Both the position numbers and the translations under genes were made by a program. DNA of 64,000 nt from a virus (lineage: Duplodnaviria; Caudoviricetes): the IMG/VR virus record IMGVR_UViG_3300037400_003271, positions 1 to 64,000 of that record, one strand, 5' to 3'. Below, piece after piece: positions 5,138-31,259 of the stretch (position 1 is its first letter; the number at the start of each line of letters is the position of its first letter). The notes beneath the pieces were generated by a model. That model was given only the letters and a program-made list of their open reading frames with translations. It was not told the DNA's origin and ran no database searches.

Positions 5138-6355
5138 ATGAGTAAGTATAGCAACGGTTTTTACACCCTTATGGAGGAGGCCGGGATTCTTTCTTCCAAG
5201 AGTTTCACCGCCTACATCCGCGATGTTGTCGGTTTCGGCAATATCCAGGATCTGAACCTCGACGGGTTCGCATGGGACCCCGTCTCCTCTCTGACCTTCG
5301 ACTACGAGCAGCTCATCGCGAGCAATCGTCTGAAGGTGATGGCCACCTACACCGACAAGGACTCCGAGGCCATTCCGTTTGGCACGGAGGGCTTCGAGGC
5401 CGCCCGTGGTGTCATCCCTCGTCAGAAGGCCCGCTTCCTGTGGGACGAGGACGACTACCGCAAGTACCTTGACGCTGTCAACAAACTGGACTTCCAGAAC
5501 ACGACCGCCAAGAGATATGCGCTCGACCTCCTGTTCAACGGCCTGTCCGACATCAAGAACGCCCACGAGCTGTCCATGACCTACCAGCGCGACCAGATGG
5601 TTTCCAACCGCGGCCTCACGCTGTCCGCCGACAACAACCCCCGCGGCATCGTCGGCCTGACCTTCTCCGCCAACGTCCCGGACGGCAATGTGACCACAAA
5701 GACGAGCACCGCCCGCTGGTTCACCGACCCGGACCACAAGGACTCCGACCACGAAGGTTCCACCTCCGATCCCGTGAAGGATATGCGCACCATCATCCGC
5801 GCGATGAAGCGCAAGGGCTACACCAACATCGTTCTCGAGGTTGACGAGCAGTCCTGGCTCGAGGATATGGATCACAGCAAGTGGCGCACCGCCATCGGCT
5901 ACAAGCTCCGTCCCGACCTGGTCCTCGCGCCGAGCAACGACGCCAACGCCCTCGCTGTTGGCACCGCCGCGGACGACGACGAGGTGAAGCAGATGTTCGC
6001 GAAGATCATCGGCATTCCTCTGTCCAACATCAAGTTCCGCCAGGGTCTTGCCGCCGTCGAGAAACTGCAGGGCAAGGGTCCGGACGCCAAGCTCGTCCGC
6101 ACCAGCTTCCGCACCTTCAACGCGAACACCTATGTGCTCTACCCGGCCGGCCCTCTTGGCACCATCAAGAGCGTCCTGCCTCTCGTTCCGGACAGCAAGG
6201 CCATGTATGCCACCTTCTTCGGCGGCAAGGGCCTCATCCAGTACGAGTACGACGCCAAGGCAAAGACCCAGGATTGGTGGTCCGAGCTCACCGCTCTCTG
6301 CGTGCCCAACCGCCCGCAGGAGATGTACTACCTCATCACCATTTCCGGTTCCTAA
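5138..6355 (+). CDS. Major capsid protein (lambda gpE-like, HK97 fold)
   Basis: 405 aa, strongest codon bias in the module, follows scaffold and decoration genes. Confidence 0.8.
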   Translation: MSKYSNGFYTLMEEAGILSSKSFTAYIRDVVGFGNIQDLNLDGFAWDPVSSLTFDYEQLIASNRLKVMATYTDKDSEAIPFGTEGFEAARGVIPRQKARFLWDEDDYRKYLDAVNKLDFQNTTAKRYALDLLFNGLSDIKNAHELSMTYQRDQMVSNRGLTLSADNNPRGIVGLTFSANVPDGNVTTKTSTARWFTDPDHKDSDHEGSTSDPVKDMRTIIRAMKRKGYTNIVLEVDEQSWLEDMDHSKWRTAIGYKLRPDLVLAPSNDANALAVGTAADDDEVKQMFAKIIGIPLSNIKFRQGLAAVEKLQGKGPDAKLVRTSFRTFNANTYVLYPAGPLGTIKSVLPLVPDSKAMYATFFGGKGLIQYEYDAKAKTQDWWSELTALCVPNRPQEMYYLITISGS

Positions 6356-25775: not shown

Positions 25776-26216
25776 ATGGGAAAGTACAAGTATTTTGAAC
25801 TGTACGAGTTCTTGCGATCCGAGAAAGCGAAAAAGAACGGTATAGACAACACTCCAACCTTCGAAATCGTGGAACGGATCTGCCAGCTCGTCTCGTCCAT
25901 CCTCGATCCGTTGCGCGCCGCGTGGGGGTCTGGAATCAACATCAACTCCGGTTTCCGCTGCGAGGCCCTCAACAAACTCGTTGGCGGTTCCACTACTTCG
26001 GTCCATAAGCTCGGATGGGCTGCGGACCTTACCCCGGCAAACGGAAAGTTCGACGAGTTCGTCAAGTTCGTCGGGGACTGGCTCAAGAAGAACAGAATCA
26101 AGTTCGACCAACTCATCATCGAGTCCGATAGTAAGGGTAATCGCTGGCTCCATATCGGACTTTACAACAACGCCGGCCAGCAGAGGTGTGAGGTCAAAAC
26201 GATGAACGTGAAATGA
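25776..26216 (+). CDS. Endolysin, peptidase M15 family zinc peptidase
   Basis: SGFRC..LN..VGG...SVHKLGWAAD and WLHIG zinc-binding motifs. Confidence 0.88.
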   Translation: MGKYKYFELYEFLRSEKAKKNGIDNTPTFEIVERICQLVSSILDPLRAAWGSGININSGFRCEALNKLVGGSTTSVHKLGWAADLTPANGKFDEFVKFVGDWLKKNRIKFDQLIIESDSKGNRWLHIGLYNNAGQQRCEVKTMNVK

Positions 26217-26824
26217 AATTCGATAGGATTCTTGACGACATTTTGCTTGTCGTCTGTGTGATTGTCGTCGCCTACTTTTCGTGGGAAATAAGCGGCAACA
26301 TACACTATTCATCGGGGTATGATGATGCGCTCGCGTCCATCAAGCCCGACACGGAGTATGTAGACAAGCCGATCTACATCGACAAGCCCGTCCCGGTCAT
26401 CGAGTATCGCGATACGGGCAGGGTGGTGTATGTGCCGGTCATCATCAAGGACAGCACCGGCCACACGGACACGACCGCAGTGCCGATGCACCCGGATGTG
26501 AAGCAATACGAAGACTCCACCTATCGGGCGCAAGTATCTGGTATCAATCCGAATCTCGATTGGATAGAGGTCTACCAGCGCACATTCTACATCACGAAGG
26601 TCGTGCCGGAGTACAAGTACCCAACCTTCGCACTATCTCCTACCATAGACGCATTTGTCTTCCCTGGCCATTTCTCGTTCGGAGGAGGTCTGGAGATAGA
26701 CTATTGGAAGGGCCGGTGGCAGTTCTCGGCTGAGGGAGGATACGGCGTATTCTATGACTTCAAGCGCGCAATCGCTGGTCCGTACGGCCAGATAGGCGCA
26801 AAGTATAACCTTATCAGAAAATAG
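26213..26824 (+). CDS. Spanin-like lysis accessory protein
   Basis: N-terminal TM helix, extended P/V/D/T-rich linker, C-terminal amphipathic beta strands; ATGA overlap with the endolysin. Confidence 0.5.
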   Translation: MKFDRILDDILLVVCVIVVAYFSWEISGNIHYSSGYDDALASIKPDTEYVDKPIYIDKPVPVIEYRDTGRVVYVPVIIKDSTGHTDTTAVPMHPDVKQYEDSTYRAQVSGINPNLDWIEVYQRTFYITKVVPEYKYPTFALSPTIDAFVFPGHFSFGGGLEIDYWKGRWQFSAEGGYGVFYDFKRAIAGPYGQIGAKYNLIRK

Positions 26825-26830
26825 TAGGCT

Positions 26831-27010
26831 ATGACAAGATCAAAAGTGAAAGTATCGACGAAGCCCGGCCGGTCCGGACAGCTTCTCGCAAAGGCGCCAG
26901 TGCTGGTTAAGACAACGTCAAACGCGGCCGGATCCCCGATCCACAGCTCGCGGGCCCATATCGGTGTTCATATCAGGACGACGCACGATGGGAAGCCGCG
27001 GCCTAAATGA
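26831..27010 (+). CDS. Small basic protein, 59 aa (not in ORF track)
   Basis: MTRSKVKVSTKPGRSG...KPRPK; tiles between neighbours. Confidence 0.4.
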   Translation: MTRSKVKVSTKPGRSGQLLAKAPVLVKTTSNAAGSPIHSSRAHIGVHIRTTHDGKPRPK

Positions 27011-27011
27011 C

Positions 27012-27383
27012 GTGGCGGAGTACATTCGTACGCTGAAACGGGTGACAATTTTCACACAATTGCTCCCGTTTCTTTATTCGCTATGCTACATCGCGGTTCT
27101 TCTGGCATATCAGTTCGTTCCAGAGTGGGCGGTGGACCTTCTTGATTCGCTATTCTACATATCTCCAGCGTTTATGGCTGGCGCCGTAATCCTTTCCAGA
27201 CTGCTGCACCTCTGCAGATGGCATCAGCTGGCATGCGTGATACCTGCAATATCTCAGATCCCGGTGCTGTTCGACAGGTTTTTTTCGTCGATGGATCAGG
27301 GTGCGGCAATGATTTCGAATATTTCGGTTGCGCTTATGGCCGCACTCTTTATCATTTCCGCGTATAAAGTGTTCTTAAGATAA
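27012..27383 (+). CDS. Multi-pass membrane protein
   Basis: About four hydrophobic segments; GTG 27012 is the likely start (ATG 26988 is an alternative). Confidence 0.55.
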   Translation: MAEYIRTLKRVTIFTQLLPFLYSLCYIAVLLAYQFVPEWAVDLLDSLFYISPAFMAGAVILSRLLHLCRWHQLACVIPAISQIPVLFDRFFSSMDQGAAMISNISVALMAALFIISAYKVFLR

Positions 27384-27667
27384 TGGATGTAAAGAAATAT
27401 CTGATCGAGATACTTGACTACTACAAATACAAGGTCGAGAATGACCTGTGCAACCTTGAAGAGATGAATTCGGTTATCCGCTCGCTGGAAGAGAACGCGA
27501 AAGTGACCGGGACGATCTCCGACTTTGCGAGATTCTTCAATGTTCCGGAGACGACGGTCAGGACAAACATCTTCCGGAAGATGTTCTCGAAGCCGAAGCG
27601 AAAGGTGCTGTACTCGTTCAGCGAGTTTCTGAAGATTGTTCCAGCGAGGTGGCGAAATAACAAGTAG
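27383..27667 (+). CDS. HTH DNA-binding protein
   Basis: TISDFARFFNVPETTVRTNI helix-turn-helix pattern. Confidence 0.55.
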   Translation: MDVKKYLIEILDYYKYKVENDLCNLEEMNSVIRSLEENAKVTGTISDFARFFNVPETTVRTNIFRKMFSKPKRKVLYSFSEFLKIVPARWRNNK

Positions 27668-27713
27668 TTGCCGGAAGTAAAGAACACTTTTCCTCCACAT
27701 AGTTTTTCTGCCG

Positions 27714-27752
27714 AACTTTGTCGTAAAGATGTGGCCCATCTACGACAAAGTT
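27714..27752 (+). promoter_or_regulatory. Long inverted repeat (operator or leader hairpin) upstream of the cassette
   Basis: Perfect 12-bp arms AACTTTGTCGTA (27714-27725) and TACGACAAAGTT (27741-27752) with inner GATG/CATC. Confidence 0.6.
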
Positions 27753-27773
27753 TAACTTTTAATTCAAACTAAA

Positions 27774-28661
27774 ATGGCAGAGTCCGATAAAACTATCATT
27801 CTTCCCGACAACCAGTCTCACGGATACGGCTATCCTATGGGCGGTTTCGGGGGCTTCGGTTCCTTTAACAGCATCGCCGACCTGTTCGGCCTTGCGATCA
27901 TCGCCAGCATGTTCGGCTGGGGCGGCAACTGGGGTGGCGGCTTCGGCGGCTGGGGTGGCAACTCTGGCGCCGGTTTCCTTTCCAACCAACTCAACAACGA
28001 CAGCGGCCGCGAACTGATTATGAATGCGGTCACCTCCCAGGGTGAGGCATCTCGTACGGCCATCCAGAGCCTTGCAACTATGCTCGGCCAGGACTTCAAC
28101 CTCGTGAACGGCGCTGTTCAGAATGTCCAGAACGCCCTCGCTACCATCGCCGCCAATCAGGGCATGAACACCCTGCAGGTGGTGAACGCGATCCAGAATG
28201 GCAACTGTCAGCTCGCGAGCCAGTTCCAGCAGTGCTGCTGCGAGAACAAACTTCTCGTCACCGAGCAGGGCTATCAGAACCAGCTCCGCACCGTCGCGCA
28301 GACCAACGAGATCAACGGCAACATCGCCGACCTCAAGGCGACCGTTATTGACCAGTTCTGCGGCCTCGAGAAGCGCGAGATGCAGGCCAAGATCGAGACG
28401 CAGGCAGACATTATCGGCCAGCTCCGCGGTCAGATCGACAACGCGAACCAGACCGCGGCCATCACCGGTTACGTCAACAGCCTCGTGACCCCTCTCGCGC
28501 AGAAGGTGAACGAGATCGCAGCCAAACAGCTCCCTACGGTGCCTGTCGTGTATCCCAACATTCAGGCCGTGAACAACACGCCGTTCATGGGAAACTACTA
28601 CGGCGGTTTCAATGGCTACGGCTACGGACCCGGCTGGGGCAACGGCAGTTACTGGGGCTAA
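27774..28661 (+). CDS. Gly/aromatic-rich, Q/N-rich coiled-coil protein of unknown function (cassette gene 1)
   Basis: 295 aa; GFGGFG/GWGG N-terminus with hydrophobic helix, QQCCCEN motif, GY-rich C-terminus; capsid-like codon bias. Confidence 0.8.
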   Translation: MAESDKTIILPDNQSHGYGYPMGGFGGFGSFNSIADLFGLAIIASMFGWGGNWGGGFGGWGGNSGAGFLSNQLNNDSGRELIMNAVTSQGEASRTAIQSLATMLGQDFNLVNGAVQNVQNALATIAANQGMNTLQVVNAIQNGNCQLASQFQQCCCENKLLVTEQGYQNQLRTVAQTNEINGNIADLKATVIDQFCGLEKREMQAKIETQADIIGQLRGQIDNANQTAAITGYVNSLVTPLAQKVNEIAAKQLPTVPVVYPNIQAVNNTPFMGNYYGGFNGYGYGPGWGNGSYWG

Positions 28662-28670
28662 TGTTTACAG

Positions 28671-28698
28671 ATAGGCGGAGCGCAACAACTCTGCCTAT
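28671..28698 (+). terminator. Intercistronic hairpin after cassette gene 1
   Basis: ATAGGCGGAG-cgcaacaa-CTCTGCCTAT. Confidence 0.55.
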
Positions 28699-28715
28699 TT
28701 AAAAAAGATTTCAAT

Positions 28716-29054
28716 ATGGCAAAGTGGCCTTTTCAGTATGTAAATATCAACGGAATCCCGACCATCCAGTCTCGTTCCGTTACGGTGTCCGAGACCTCGG
28801 TTGACTTCAAGTTCAACCCGGACTGGGACCGCAGACCGTTCCGTGGGCTGATCCTCGTGTATCTCTCCGAGGAGATCCCGGACGGGACCACTACGACGCT
28901 TCCGATTCGGTTCTCGATGGGCGGCACGACGAGCAATGTTGCTCTTGCCGGCGGCGCGAACTGGACGGTGGCCGACATTCCTGGGCCCGGCGTCTACCTC
29001 CTGTACTACGACAGGTTGGCAGACACGCTCCAGCTTCTCAATACGACTATATAA
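28716..29054 (+). CDS. Beta-rich hypothetical protein (cassette gene 2)
   Basis: 112 aa, alternating hydrophobic pattern. Confidence 0.7.
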   Translation: MAKWPFQYVNINGIPTIQSRSVTVSETSVDFKFNPDWDRRPFRGLILVYLSEEIPDGTTTTLPIRFSMGGTTSNVALAGGANWTVADIPGPGVYLLYYDRLADTLQLLNTTI

Positions 29055-29074
29055 AAACAAAAACAGTTTAACAA

Positions 29075-29590
29075 ATGCTTTCAGGACTTAGACAAGGTAC
29101 TCCCGTGTACGTTCTATATAAGAACGAGCCGCGATTCGCGGTAGGAAAAGTCGCTCAAGTCAGCAATCAATATCCGCCGCAGTTCAATTTCCAGCAGCCA
29201 ATCAACCCTAACACGATGGGGATGATGGTAGACCTCTCGATCGAGGTGGACGGGAAAACGGAGACATATCCGAGGATACCGATCAACTCGTCGATAGCGG
29301 AATTCCCCGATAAGGGCGTGATCCTCAGCGAGACCCGTGACGGCATCGTGAACGAAATCAACGTCATTCGCAATGCCAGCCAGACGGCGATCGATCAGGT
29401 GGATCTGCACAAGCGAATCATCGAATCGTGTGACCAGCTCCTGCTTGACCTTAATCCTCAGCTCAAGCACGACCAGGAGCAGGCGGGGAAGATCGCAAGG
29501 CTGGAGGAGCAGATAGCGGGGATGAGCGAGCAGATAGCGGCTATGACGGGGCTCCTGTCTAAGTCCCTTGGAAAAAAGAAGGAGGAATAA
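29075..29590 (+). CDS. Hypothetical protein with C-terminal coiled coil (cassette gene 3)
   Basis: 171 aa; SH3-like beta N-half, heptad C-half. Confidence 0.7.
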   Translation: MLSGLRQGTPVYVLYKNEPRFAVGKVAQVSNQYPPQFNFQQPINPNTMGMMVDLSIEVDGKTETYPRIPINSSIAEFPDKGVILSETRDGIVNEINVIRNASQTAIDQVDLHKRIIESCDQLLLDLNPQLKHDQEQAGKIARLEEQIAGMSEQIAAMTGLLSKSLGKKKEE

Positions 29591-29593
29591 AAA

Positions 29594-29842
29594 ATGGGAT
29601 ACGCAGTTTACAACCTCAAGGGACGCAAGTCCGACGCCATGGAGTTCGAAGAGGCCGCAAGAATGGTCGAAGAAGGACTCGAGTGTATGCGCGAACTCGC
29701 CGAGGATATGAAGGAGCAGTACGGCATGCGCCGTGGCGGCTACGGAATGCGCGGCGACTATGGCCGGCGTGACGACTGGGATGAAATGGACGACATGTAC
29801 GGCATGCGCCGGCGTCGTGACTCCCGCGGCCGCTATATGTAG
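29594..29842 (+). CDS. Small R/G/Y/D low-complexity protein (cassette gene 4)
   Basis: 82 aa; YGMR repeats, ends RRRRDSRGRYM. Confidence 0.7.
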   Translation: MGYAVYNLKGRKSDAMEFEEAARMVEEGLECMRELAEDMKEQYGMRRGGYGMRGDYGRRDDWDEMDDMYGMRRRRDSRGRYM

Positions 29843-29849
29843 TATGACC

Positions 29850-29871
29850 GGGGCGGGGAAACCCGCCCTTT
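29850..29871 (+). terminator. Intrinsic terminator
   Basis: GGGCGGG-GAAA-CCCGCCC-TTTT. Confidence 0.8.
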
Positions 29872-29880
29872 TAAAAACGA

Positions 29881-30291
29881 ATGATTATGGCAGAACGGAT
29901 TGACGATTACGAACCTATGCCCAGAGGGCTTCGTGAATACCTGTCCTACAACGGGCGCCACTTCAGCAAGCCCCTCTATGAGTGGGCCGTAAAAATGATG
30001 GAGACGAGGACTGGGGACAAGGTGCGGCCGGTTGAGAAAAGCGCGTTCGATGAAAAGATGCGGACGAACAACGTGACACTCAAGAACGACAAGGGATACG
30101 ACGGCGTGTATGTGTGGTGTATGGCCACCGCGGACTATCTCGGTTCATCCATTACGGACGAGGCGCACCTGGCCAAGTTCGTAAAAGACTACCTCGACGA
30201 TCCGGACGGATCGCAGACAAGGGCGTTTGACGAGTTCTACGCGAAGACGATGGCGCTCGGGATCCCCGTTATTTGGGACGATATGCTTTAG
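29881..30291 (+). CDS. Hypothetical helical protein (cassette gene 5)
   Basis: 136 aa; YLSYNGRHFSKPLYEWAV motif. Confidence 0.7.
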   Translation: MIMAERIDDYEPMPRGLREYLSYNGRHFSKPLYEWAVKMMETRTGDKVRPVEKSAFDEKMRTNNVTLKNDKGYDGVYVWCMATADYLGSSITDEAHLAKFVKDYLDDPDGSQTRAFDEFYAKTMALGIPVIWDDML

Positions 30292-30294
30292 AAT

Positions 30295-30696
30295 ATGATC
30301 TCGCGAAAGGTGCACATACCAGGATGGACGATCTTGTTCCTATTCTCCTTCGACAGGCACGATATGGAGAGTATCCGCGATGCCCTGCTCTGGGCCGAGG
30401 CTCCCGATTCTATTATAGACGATGTGTCGGAGAATGTTTATTCTGGTAGACTGAACGAGGGCTTCACGTTCAGCGAGCCCTCGCTCAGGCGTACCGTATT
30501 CGCGACGAGCGGGACCACCAGCGGTCCAGAAATGCTGAACACGATAGTTCACGAAATAGTGCACATAGCACAGCACATCTCTGAAGAGAACGGAATCGAC
30601 CCGCTATCGGAGAGGATGGCATACCTGTGCGGAGACATAGCAAGTTCGGTCAGTGACATAGTCTGCAGGCTTTCGTGCCCGCATTGCAATAAATAG
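30295..30696 (+). CDS. Putative zinc metallopeptidase (cassette gene 6)
   Basis: HEIVH (HExxH) plus downstream ERMAYL glutamate. Confidence 0.6.
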   Translation: MISRKVHIPGWTILFLFSFDRHDMESIRDALLWAEAPDSIIDDVSENVYSGRLNEGFTFSEPSLRRTVFATSGTTSGPEMLNTIVHEIVHIAQHISEENGIDPLSERMAYLCGDIASSVSDIVCRLSCPHCNK

Positions 30697-30725: not shown

Positions 30726-30770
30726 AATCCCCGGCAGGTTTTTGCGGTTACCTCGCCGGGGATTCTTTTC
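30726..30770. terminator. Bidirectional terminator between converging operons
   Basis: AATCCCCGGCAGG ... CCT(C)GCCGGGGATT followed by TCTTTT. Confidence 0.65.
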
Positions 30771-30771
30771 G

Positions 30772-30996
30772 TTAAATAAGGCCGAAATCGCGTGGCTCAA
30801 GCGCAAGGGTGTAGAATCTTGCCAGCGGGACCTTTAATGAGGAGCAAACGCGCTCTATTGTCTCGGTTTTGGCCTGCGTCTTACCGGCCTCGATTTTCCA
30901 AATCGACGCGGGGGTGATTCCTACCCGCTTCGCCAGATCCGGACGGGACAGGCCGTTCTCTTCCCGGATCGTCTTGATTGCTTTTCCTGTGTTCAT
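30772..30996 (-). CDS. XRE-family HTH regulator
   Basis: IKTIREENGLSRPDLAKRVGITPASIWKIEAG; real start 30996. Confidence 0.8.
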   Translation of the reverse strand: MNTGKAIKTIREENGLSRPDLAKRVGITPASIWKIEAGKTQAKTETIERVCSSLKVPLARFYTLALEPRDFGLI

Positions 30997-31259
30997 TTTT
31001 TGTTGGTTTGTATTTGTCCAATAATTTTTCCTTCTTCGCCCCAATGGATTCCGACAAGCGCTTGGAGAGCGCGGATGAGCCAACACGGGCGTTTGCCAAC
31101 GATGAAGTACATGCCGACCCGTTCTTCCGGCGGGAGGTGCTTGATGTTCTTCCCGACGTAGTAGTAGTAGTAATTCGGCTTCGGCTTGGGCGCCGCTGCT
31201 TGCTTGGCTTTCTCTTCTTCGTAGAGCTTCGCCCATCTGCCGTTTTGTTGTTGTGTCAT
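30993..31259 (-). CDS. Hypothetical protein
   Basis: Tiles in the leftward operon. Confidence 0.5.
   Translation of the reverse strand: MTQQQNGRWAKLYEEEKAKQAAAPKPKPNYYYYYVGKNIKHLPPEERVGMYFIVGKRPCWLIRALQALVGIHWGEEGKIIGQIQTNKK

Follow-up and report, generated by a model that had tools for sequence, protein, structure and literature searches.

A horizontally mobile six-gene operon of gut and rumen Bacteroidales phages, led by a coiled-coil protein gene with capsid-like codon usage and closed by a predicted zincin-like peptidase gene

Six genes, here called g1 to g6, that occupy positions 27774–30696 of a 64,000-nucleotide stretch of phage DNA (the window; positions 1 to 64,000 of IMG/VR record IMGVR_UViG_3300037400_003271) constitute one autonomous, horizontally mobile accessory operon that is present in hundreds of gut and rumen phages of the Bacteroidales, crAss-like phages included. 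No viruses are more abundant in the mammalian gut than the phages of Bacteroidales, among them the crAss-like phages, yet the majority of their genes are without known function. The operon described here is compact, with six or seven genes whose order is kept across unrelated phage lineages, a lead protein that is probably made at capsid-like levels and no member that matches a family of known function. We tentatively favor the reading that g1 forms a membrane-linked assembly with adaptors and a peptidase and that this assembly has an accessory role at the cell envelope.

The recurrence of these genes as one unit was established in two collections. A search of IMG/VR with g1 yielded 140 relatives, from which 80 loci were kept and charted with tblastn and open reading frame (ORF) maps; many of these loci stop at contig ends. 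Within them g1 was present 80 times, g2 67, g3 67, g5 68 and g6 48 times, in constant order, and nearly all loci of sufficient length displayed the same string of proteins of approximately 300, 112, 175, 80, 135 and 130 amino acids. All-against-all clustering of the loci gave the cassette genes as the five largest families (52–71 loci each), and the commonest family of flanking genes reached no more than 22 loci. The second collection, which holds one genome per prokaryotic species, contributed 82 further relatives, and ORF profile searches of 80 of these loci detected g1 in 78, g3 in 74, g5 in 71, g6 in 63 and g2 in 60, again in the same order. These relatives lie mostly in Bacteroidales assemblies, some of them on contigs of several hundred kb, and the isolates that carry them include Paraprevotella xylaniphila, Parabacteroides segnis, Parabacteroides leei, Bacteroides sp. 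ET71 and Phocaeicola dorei. The cassette is also complete in the cultured Bacteroides phage C3_41T2LP, where its last gene is annotated as a PolyVal metallopeptidase, and slightly varied forms of it are found in two families of crAss-like phages. The g1 family comprises 829 clusters at 50% identity, of which 491 reach an E value of 1e-10 or better. A sequence-only reading of the window had stated that similar gene sets recur in gut phages, and this is confirmed in IMG/VR, in bacterial assemblies and among deposited phages: well over a hundred independent loci, whose flanks are unrelated, carry the genes together in one order.

Searches with profiles and folds assigned none of the genes an unrelated known function, and this result, together with their co-occurrence, leaves the cassette standing as one module. 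Pfam, PHROGs and PADLOC scans of the single proteins and of whole alignments returned only families of unknown function, DUF7841 and coiled-coil noise. No PADLOC defense model was matched at better than E 0.005, and none was matched by g1 to g4. Profile searches of solved structures with g1, g2, g3, g5 and g6 gave nothing below E 0.03, and a literature search on DUF7841 and C3_41T2LP found no papers.

All six ORFs that the sequence-only reading had placed in this interval are present there on the plus strand: g1 at 27774–28661 (295 amino acids), g2 at 28716–29054 (112), g3 at 29075–29590 (171), g4 at 29594–29842 (82), g5 at 29881–30291 (136) and g6 at 30295–30696 (133). The four hairpins ascribed to the cassette likewise fold far better than shuffled sequence, with z scores from −3.3 to −5.1. 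The upstream hairpin, between a helix-turn-helix (HTH) gene and g1, spans 27713–27753 on the plus strand and has a perfect outer stem of 12 bp (−19.1 kcal/mol, z −5.1); a second plus-strand hairpin follows g1 (28669–28700; −17.0 kcal/mol, z −4.6). After g4, also on the plus strand, lies an internal terminator or attenuator hairpin at 29850–29872, with its stem at 29850–29869 (GGGGCGGG/CCCGCCCU), followed by UUUU (−18.1 kcal/mol, z −3.3), and a closing hairpin lies at 30726–30764, between g6 and a convergent XRE gene (−23.9 kcal/mol, z −4.1). The T runs of all four are short, which is why a simple terminator scan lists none of them. Only in this phage is g1 followed by such a hairpin, as none of 33 g1–g2 spacers of relatives contains a stable hairpin; the g1–g2 and g2–g3 spacers of relatives are short (median 25–33 nt) and unstructured. 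The g4–g5 spacer has a median length of 76 nt across relatives and carries a stable hairpin in 31 of 35 distinct loci, and g5 and g6 overlap or lie at most 12 nt apart in 48 of 51. The conserved plan is g1 to g4, a hairpin, g5 and g6, and a terminator.

The unit often includes a seventh gene, which encodes a small HTH protein and lies upstream. In the window this is an HTH-like gene for a 94-residue probable regulator, directly 5′ of the cassette (27383–27667, plus strand). Its homologues adjoin g1 in 13 of the 80 IMG/VR loci, and in 30 of approximately 70 loci the upstream neighbor is a protein of 75–110 amino acids, these proteins falling into three unrelated families. The first shows 56% identity to a protein of the crAss-like phage cr116_1 that is annotated as an excisionase-like HTH protein. 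The profile of the window's own family matched an HTH-repeat design at E 9e-7, yet no single stretch passed; the HTH of PurR was weakly matched, and the 94-residue protein had no Pfam match. A search with the third family returned nothing significant, and its C-terminal half is HTH-like by eye only. The exchange of non-homologous small proteins of DNA-binding type at the same upstream position suggests that the gene found there is a dedicated regulator of the module.

The site occupied by the cassette differs from phage to phage. It lies after the lysis genes in the window, in cr116_1, in cr4_1 and in locus L169, 5′ of the endolysin and terminase genes in cr272_1, directly after tail-fiber genes in many IMG/VR loci and behind the RecT, YqaJ and SSB genes in C3_41T2LP. 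A position between the lysis genes and the early region, by which the cassette had originally been described, is therefore not a property of the module, whose sites elsewhere follow tail-fiber or recombination genes or adjoin the capsid gene. The clearest case is a comparison of cr116_1 with crAss001, within a single crAss-like subfamily. In cr116_1 the order is holin, endolysin, excisionase-like HTH, an extra small HExxH gene, g1, a gene for a 136-residue protein, g3, a g4-like gene, g6, a gp31 homolog and capsid. In crAss001, which its record describes as a cultured phage of Bacteroides intestinalis and whose virion structure has reportedly been solved, gp28, gp30, gp31 and gp32 are adjacent, only a 235-bp spacer separates the neighbors and no relative of g1 is detectable. 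The cassette is thus present in cr116_1 and absent from crAss001 at a single shared site, flanked by the endolysin gene on one side and the gp31 and capsid genes on the other, which identifies it as an accessory and mobile module. Because crAss001 forms virions and lyses its host without it, the cassette is neither a core part of the virion nor a required part of the lysis equipment, and by this indirect comparison of phages it is judged dispensable for virion building and release. A search for relatives anchored on the endolysin gave three loci; on one contig, whose endolysin is 63% identical, no cassette lies within 9 kb.

Exchange has also occurred within the cassette. Relative to locus L001, the window copies are 88% identical for g1, 39% for g2, 92% for g3, 45% for g5 and 57% for g6, and relative to L025 g2 is 79% identical and g3 only 39%. 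In several respects the cassette resembles phage morons such as bor and lom of lambda or gp15 of HK97, which are self-contained, have their own terminators, reside in or after late operons, are present or absent at the same site and are dispensable for virion production. It differs from them in consisting of six or seven genes with a regulator of their own rather than a single gene, in occurring also in crAss-like phages and in having no homology to described morons; its bounding hairpins are its putative terminators.

The lead gene, g1, encodes a member of phrog_16490, a family of unknown function. Its codon usage had been described as capsid-like, and measurement bears this out: its codon adaptation index (CAI) against the capsid gene is 0.65, level with the two best-adapted structural genes (0.66 and 0.67), and all other genes measured lie below it, at 0.26–0.51. 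The protein had been read as a Gly/aromatic low-complexity protein with a coiled coil, and Gly/aromatic ends with a helical middle are indeed present. From its N terminus, it consists of a conserved peptide, a Gly/aromatic head, a hydrophobic helix (residues 33–48), a Gly/Trp linker, a helical domain (approximately 66–150), a CCC motif (154–156), a coiled coil and a tail. Invariant residues cluster at 81–143 in the helical domain (alignment A2), the CCC motif is nearly invariant, and the coiled coil varies in length through insertions of 30–45 residues. A conserved Pro-rich motif, PTVPVxYPNxxAVNTTPY, precedes the Gly/aromatic tail, which nearly always ends in Phe. The AlphaFold2 (AF2) monomer has a mean predicted local distance difference test score (pLDDT) of 56, rising to 75–81 for residues 80–150, with helices at 33–46, 66–177 and 185–250. 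A Foldseek search of this monomer against the PDB gave nothing at E 0.001 or better, and the ESM Atlas returned only unnamed viral clusters.

The hydrophobic helix of g1 is approximately 16 residues long, with a Kyte-Doolittle (KD) hydropathy of 1.4 over 19 residues and 1.9 over 15. Across subfamilies its sequence changes while its hydrophobicity and its aromatic/Gly borders are kept (IADLFGLAIIASMFGW, GILGFLLGLLFG, FLWIIFLFFLFPLL and WIWILFLWLIW). Retention of hydrophobicity without conservation of sequence is the behavior of a membrane segment, so g1 probably resides in or on the cytoplasmic membrane, and such anchoring is likely as a prediction from this pattern, with borderline hydropathy. 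Homologs of g1 in crAss-like phages have been deposited as "outer capsid protein/viral fiber" or "spike protein". These names most likely reflect generic coiled-coil similarity, in which case the public records mislabel g1.

The two distal genes are closely coupled. g5 belongs to DUF7841, as Pfam PF25223 is matched at E 5e-16 with 59.3 bits against a cut-off of 25.2 over profile positions 2–113 of 114; it also corresponds to phrog_38431, and Y20, A36, M40, D85, D107 and D109 are invariant. In keeping with its earlier description as a helical protein, g5 is all-helical in its AF2 model with pLDDT above 90, and in BFVD its structural neighbors are crAss-like phage proteins of the DUF7841 family. 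When longer versions that might be g5 fusions were sought, the search gave one 400-residue protein on a 1.5-kb contig and no informative fusion, and an apparent g5–g6 fusion in L038 was rejected as an artifact of an over-long ORF in another frame. At the junction of the two genes (30289–30297), TAG and AAT are followed in frame by the ATG of g6, and 23 other loci are alike, with a single stop that may be TAG, TAA or TGA. The share of in-frame g5–g6 junctions is about that expected by chance among non-overlapping pairs, and the arrangement probably represents translational coupling, not programmed read-through. For modeling, g5 and g6 were folded as a read-through product (TAG read as Q), using an alignment in which 22 other natural in-frame read-throughs served as paired rows alongside single g5 and g6 rows. 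The resulting AF2 model has a mean pLDDT of 93.6, approximately 95 for g6; as the two parts are tethered by two residues, their relative placement is not readable as a complex.

The reading of g6 as an HExxH protease has held as a prediction. W11, H86, E87, H90, E106 and G113 are invariant among 50 sequences, the HExxH motif thus being fully conserved, the C terminus is Cys-rich, and a zincin-type fold is predicted. H86, E87 and H90 lie in model helix 215–237 (g6 residues 77–99), the invariant E106, in the position of a third-ligand Glu, lies in the following helix (model residues 244–256), and the core is made up of strands 140–146, 149–157, 194–199 and 204–210 with flanking helices. In the zincins of polyvalent proteins (MPTase), a small alpha/beta core carries an HExxH helix and, after it, a helix that supplies a Glu as third ligand (Iyer et al. 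2017, PMC5512222). g6 shares this helix and Glu layout, and its homolog in C3_41T2LP bears the PolyVal metallopeptidase name; it differs in being a stand-alone protein of approximately 130 amino acids rather than a domain of a giant injected protein, and in matching Pfam models only below threshold. In BFVD, Foldseek paired g6 with a "PolyVal metallopeptidase superfamily domain" protein (E 1.1e-9, TM score 0.80, root-mean-square deviation 1.3), with weaker rows for metalloprotease, SprT-like and IrrE proteins. Against the PDB, Foldseek of the g5–g6 model gave nothing significant, and VIA-align of the same model against 48,161 chains peaked at Z 5.5, most of its matches falling on g6 and solved zincins scoring Z 3.5–4.0. 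g6 itself had no Pfam match at E up to 1, and its 50 family members touched Pfam only below the cut-offs (DUF6782 in four, M78 in two at E 0.003, SprT-like in two). As no curated model is matched above threshold, we file g6 at the superfamily level only, as a predicted stand-alone zincin-like metallopeptidase of the gluzincin type.

The proximity of g6 to an XRE-type HTH gene (30772–31002) recalls the ImmA/IrrE (M78) peptidases, which are small HExxH-plus-Glu enzymes encoded beside XRE repressors. M78 is touched, however, by only the two of 50 members mentioned above, and the XRE gene is convergent and rarely linked to the cassette (3 of 80 loci). A second small HExxH protein (IAHECLHV) is encoded 5′ of g1 in cr116_1 (L083, 4267–4614) and matches the g6 profile at E 1.8e-6; the cr116_1 cassette has two zincins and no g5.

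The three genes between g1 and the conserved hairpin differ in their patterns of conservation. g2 (phrog_31654; alignment A3) is the most freely exchanged gene of the cassette, its 79% identity to the L025 copy falling to 35–39% at loci whose g1 and g3 are approximately 90% identical to those of the window. Most g2 homologs begin with the Cys-rich sequence MxC or MNCNCNC; the window copy does not. g3 (phrog_28898, matched by all 44 members; alignment A4) has an N-terminal domain and a helical or coiled-coil C-terminal half, and with it the ESM Atlas gave scores of 0.81 or less. To the copies in L001, L003, L053 and L054 it is 92–95% identical at the amino acid level and 73–83% at the nucleotide level, and g1, g2 and g5 at these loci are far more diverged. 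High amino acid identity combined with low nucleotide identity is suggestive of strong purifying selection, and the overall pattern indicates either that this selection is very strong or that g3 alleles may be exchanged between cassettes. Contigs from two RNA libraries of different studies, one from cattle gut and one from sheep gut, match part of g3 (29111–29547) with 0 to 7 differences, which is a weak hint of transcription; within a 3.8-kb stretch these contigs cover only g3, and the uncovered parts are uninformative. Inverted repeats at 29434–29483 lie inside the matched part.

g4 had been described as an RGY-repeat protein, and it is in fact rich in Arg, Gly and Tyr. It comprises an acidic helix with a conserved Cys, the Arg/Gly/Tyr-rich stretch and a basic C terminus, RRRRDSRGRYM. 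An ORF in the g4 position is found in 58 loci, and most of these proteins start with an MG[YWL]I strand and finish in RDSRGR[YF]x or an Arg-rich sequence. In L055 and L056, g2, g3 and the Pro/aromatic tail of g1 are all missing together, and the HTH gene, g4, g5 and g6 remain; it is from this joint loss that an action of g2 and g3 on the g1 tail is proposed. A complex prediction for g1 residues 176–295 and g2 with g3 as partner gave "no answer" (score 0.04) and speaks neither for nor against contact. None of g2 to g6 has a hydrophobic segment or a hydrophobic N terminus, the maximal KD over 19 residues being 1.05.

Based on these observations, we tentatively propose that g1, probably made in capsid-like amounts, would be the major subunit of a protein assembly, held in or on the cytoplasmic membrane by its short hydrophobic helix between Gly/Trp belts and oligomerizing through its helical domain and variable coiled coil. 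g2 and g3 would serve the Pro/aromatic/Gly tail of g1, g4 with its Arg/Gly/Tyr composition would be a constant small partner, and g5 (DUF7841) and the g6 peptidase may process or control a component. The complex would face the cytoplasm, because g2 to g6 have neither signal peptides nor membrane segments. Its role would be to modify the envelope of infected or lysogenic cells, thereby excluding competing phages or timing release, and this role would be accessory, given that a crAss-like relative builds virions and lyses without the cassette. The membrane-linked assembly is ranked first because of the behavior of the hydrophobic helix and because the module is independent of virion type. A more specific version, in which the cassette encodes an unrecognized multi-protein device, a membrane-anchored coiled-coil array of g1 with adaptors and peptidase that would remodel the envelope for exclusion of rivals or for alternative release and that would be exchanged among crAss-like phages, siphovirus-type phages and prophages, is possible but doubtful. 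The sequence-only reading had likewise envisaged a multi-component machine; of that proposal, the existence of one module and the predicted zincin nature of g6 are upheld, a polymer-like major subunit joined by minor partners fits the codon bias of g1 and the attenuator-like hairpin after g4, and the machine itself is carried forward at the tentative strength just given.

Several observations weigh against the membrane-linked assembly. The hydrophobic helix is short, its KD of 1.4 over 19 residues compares with 2.2 in the neighboring holin-like and DUF6808 proteins, and only two of 38 homologs reach 1.6. The internal mosaicism of the cassette and the crAss-like versions that lack g5 or g6 imply that the six proteins need not form one obligate complex. 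Finally, high expression and placement among late genes suit a virion component equally well.

That last point leads to the strongest rival, an optional virion appendage, in which g1 would form a trimeric coiled-coil fiber or whisker on the head or neck whose distal Gly/aromatic part would be sticky, g2 and g3 would act as adaptors or chaperones and g6 as a maturation peptidase. The codon bias of g1 equals that of major virion proteins, the cassette is usually co-oriented with late genes and situated after tail-fiber or lysis genes or beside the capsid gene, and a conserved N-terminal domain followed by a coiled coil of variable length is fiber-like, in accord with the names given to the crAss-like homologs by their depositors. 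Dispensability, too, is what one would expect of decoration proteins such as the head fibers of phi29 or Hoc and the whiskers of T4. Like reovirus sigma1, T4 fibritin and class I fusion proteins, g1 has a long alpha-helical coiled coil and a hydrophobic segment near one end, but it has no significant sequence-profile or Foldseek match to such trimeric fibers and fusion spikes, or indeed a significant structural match to any fiber. The cassette is, moreover, found in unrelated virion types, in crAss-like phages of podovirus type as well as in phages with a 1,900-residue tape measure, it has its own regulator and terminators, it stands behind recombination genes in C3_41T2LP, and a helix that conserves hydrophobicity only would be an unusual motif for docking to a virion. 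For these reasons we regard the appendage as unlikely. A cytoplasmic scaffold seems decidedly improbable. Here g1 would form a filament of the intermediate-filament or keratin type with Cys cross-links, or a condensate with g4 through Arg-aromatic contacts, and would organize replication or assembly. As in keratins and other intermediate filaments, crescentin and FilP, Gly/aromatic head and tail segments flank a helical rod and cysteines are available for cross-links; the composition of the g1 ends and of g4, the likely abundance of g1, the cytoplasmic nature of all partners as judged from their sequences and the retention of g4 as the one small partner even in reduced cassettes would agree with such a role. 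The likeness is, however, one of composition and layout, with no homology to any filament protein, the g1 rod is shorter and contains a hydrophobic helix that is better explained by a membrane, given its Trp belts, and a dispensable mobile module would be odd as a core organizer.

Two further proposals seem to us more improbable still, and about equally so. In one, the cassette would assist lysis, g1 acting as a spanin- or fusogen-like inner-membrane protein that would bridge or disrupt the outer membrane once holin and endolysin have done their work, with soluble partners reaching the periplasm through the holin holes. Cassettes adjoin holin and endolysin genes in the window, cr116_1, cr4_1, cr272_1, L015, L028, L056 and L169, and no canonical spanin is annotated in these phages; g1 itself shares with the spanins Rz/Rz1 of lambda and gp11 of T1 a hydrophobic segment near the N terminus that may serve as an anchor, conserved cysteines in a long coiled coil and the frequent adjacency to lysis genes, to which its aromatic, nearly always Phe-ended C terminus may be added. 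Yet g1 is about twice as long as spanins, has low-complexity Gly/aromatic ends and a codon bias far above that of the holin-like and endolysin genes, and matches no spanin in sequence or fold; g2 to g6 include no recognizable lipoprotein partner, the putative anchor is only borderline in hydropathy, and in many loci the placement of the cassette is unconnected with lysis genes. crAss001 retains a homologous holin and endolysin and lyses without the cassette, which, indirectly and by comparison, argues against required lysis equipment. In the other proposal, two separate units travel together, g1 to g4 being structural and g5 and g6, the DUF7841 protein and the zincin, acting on host or competitor proteins as stand-alone relatives of polyvalent peptidases are thought to do. 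The conserved hairpin between g4 and g5, the tight coupling of g5 to g6, the mosaic inheritance, the absence of g5 or g6 from some crAss-like cassettes and the extra zincin 5′ of g1 in cr116_1 would all be accommodated, but g5 and g6 follow g1 to g4 in the great majority of the 160 loci of the two collections and stay with g1 and g4 where g2 and g3 have been lost.

The function of the cassette is open to direct experiment, because one phage that carries it, C3_41T2LP, has been cultured on Bacteroides uniformis and because cultured strains are the source of three further assemblies that contain it (Paraprevotella xylaniphila YIT 11841, Parabacteroides segnis BX2 and Bacteroides sp. ET71). Under the favored membrane-linked reading and its rivals alike, its retention and exchange as a single unit imply that it confers a trait open to selection when phage and host, or rival phages, compete in gut and rumen.

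The g1 family extends into some unexpected records. Relatives assigned to phrog_16490 are found in L085 (Caudoviricetes sp. vir215) and in vir335, whose records name Methanomassiliicoccales archaea as host, and in vir215 the relative adjoins genes for a reverse transcriptase and an integrase. If these hosts are not wrongly assigned, the g1 family reaches beyond bacteria. In L063 and L066 (approximately 5500–5810), a 425-residue reverse transcriptase-like ORF lies directly 5′ of g1 and is probably part of a diversity-generating retroelement near tail-fiber genes. Contigs with g1 that are filed or binned under Vibrio, Treponema, Synergistales and Bacillota (L151, a 2.2-kb contig of Vibrio olivae, L090, L094, L097, L109 and others) likely reflect mis-binning or contamination, since they are mostly short contigs or bins of metagenome-assembled genomes.

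The window covers the greater part of a complete phage genome, which is 72,852 bp long and has direct terminal repeats; a DNA-level search of deposited phages gave no match. The plus strand of the window encodes, in order, terminase, portal, capsid, tail genes, a 1,912-residue ORF of tape-measure size, a 2,224-residue fiber with an S74 chaperone domain, lysis-type genes and the cassette, beyond which the XRE-type repressor gene (30772–31002, minus strand; HTH_3 match at E 2e-11) runs convergently. The lysis-type genes, all on the plus strand, include an M15 endolysin (25776–26216; CAI 0.42 against the capsid gene), an adjoining DUF6808 protein (26213–26824) and a possible holin (26964–27383) with a strongly hydrophobic segment (KD 2.2) and a CAI of 0.26. 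The DUF6808 protein begins with a membrane helix (KD 2.26), Gly and aromatic residues alternate through much of its C-terminal half in the manner of an outer-membrane beta-barrel, and it is a candidate for the envelope-disruption function that is missing in these phages.

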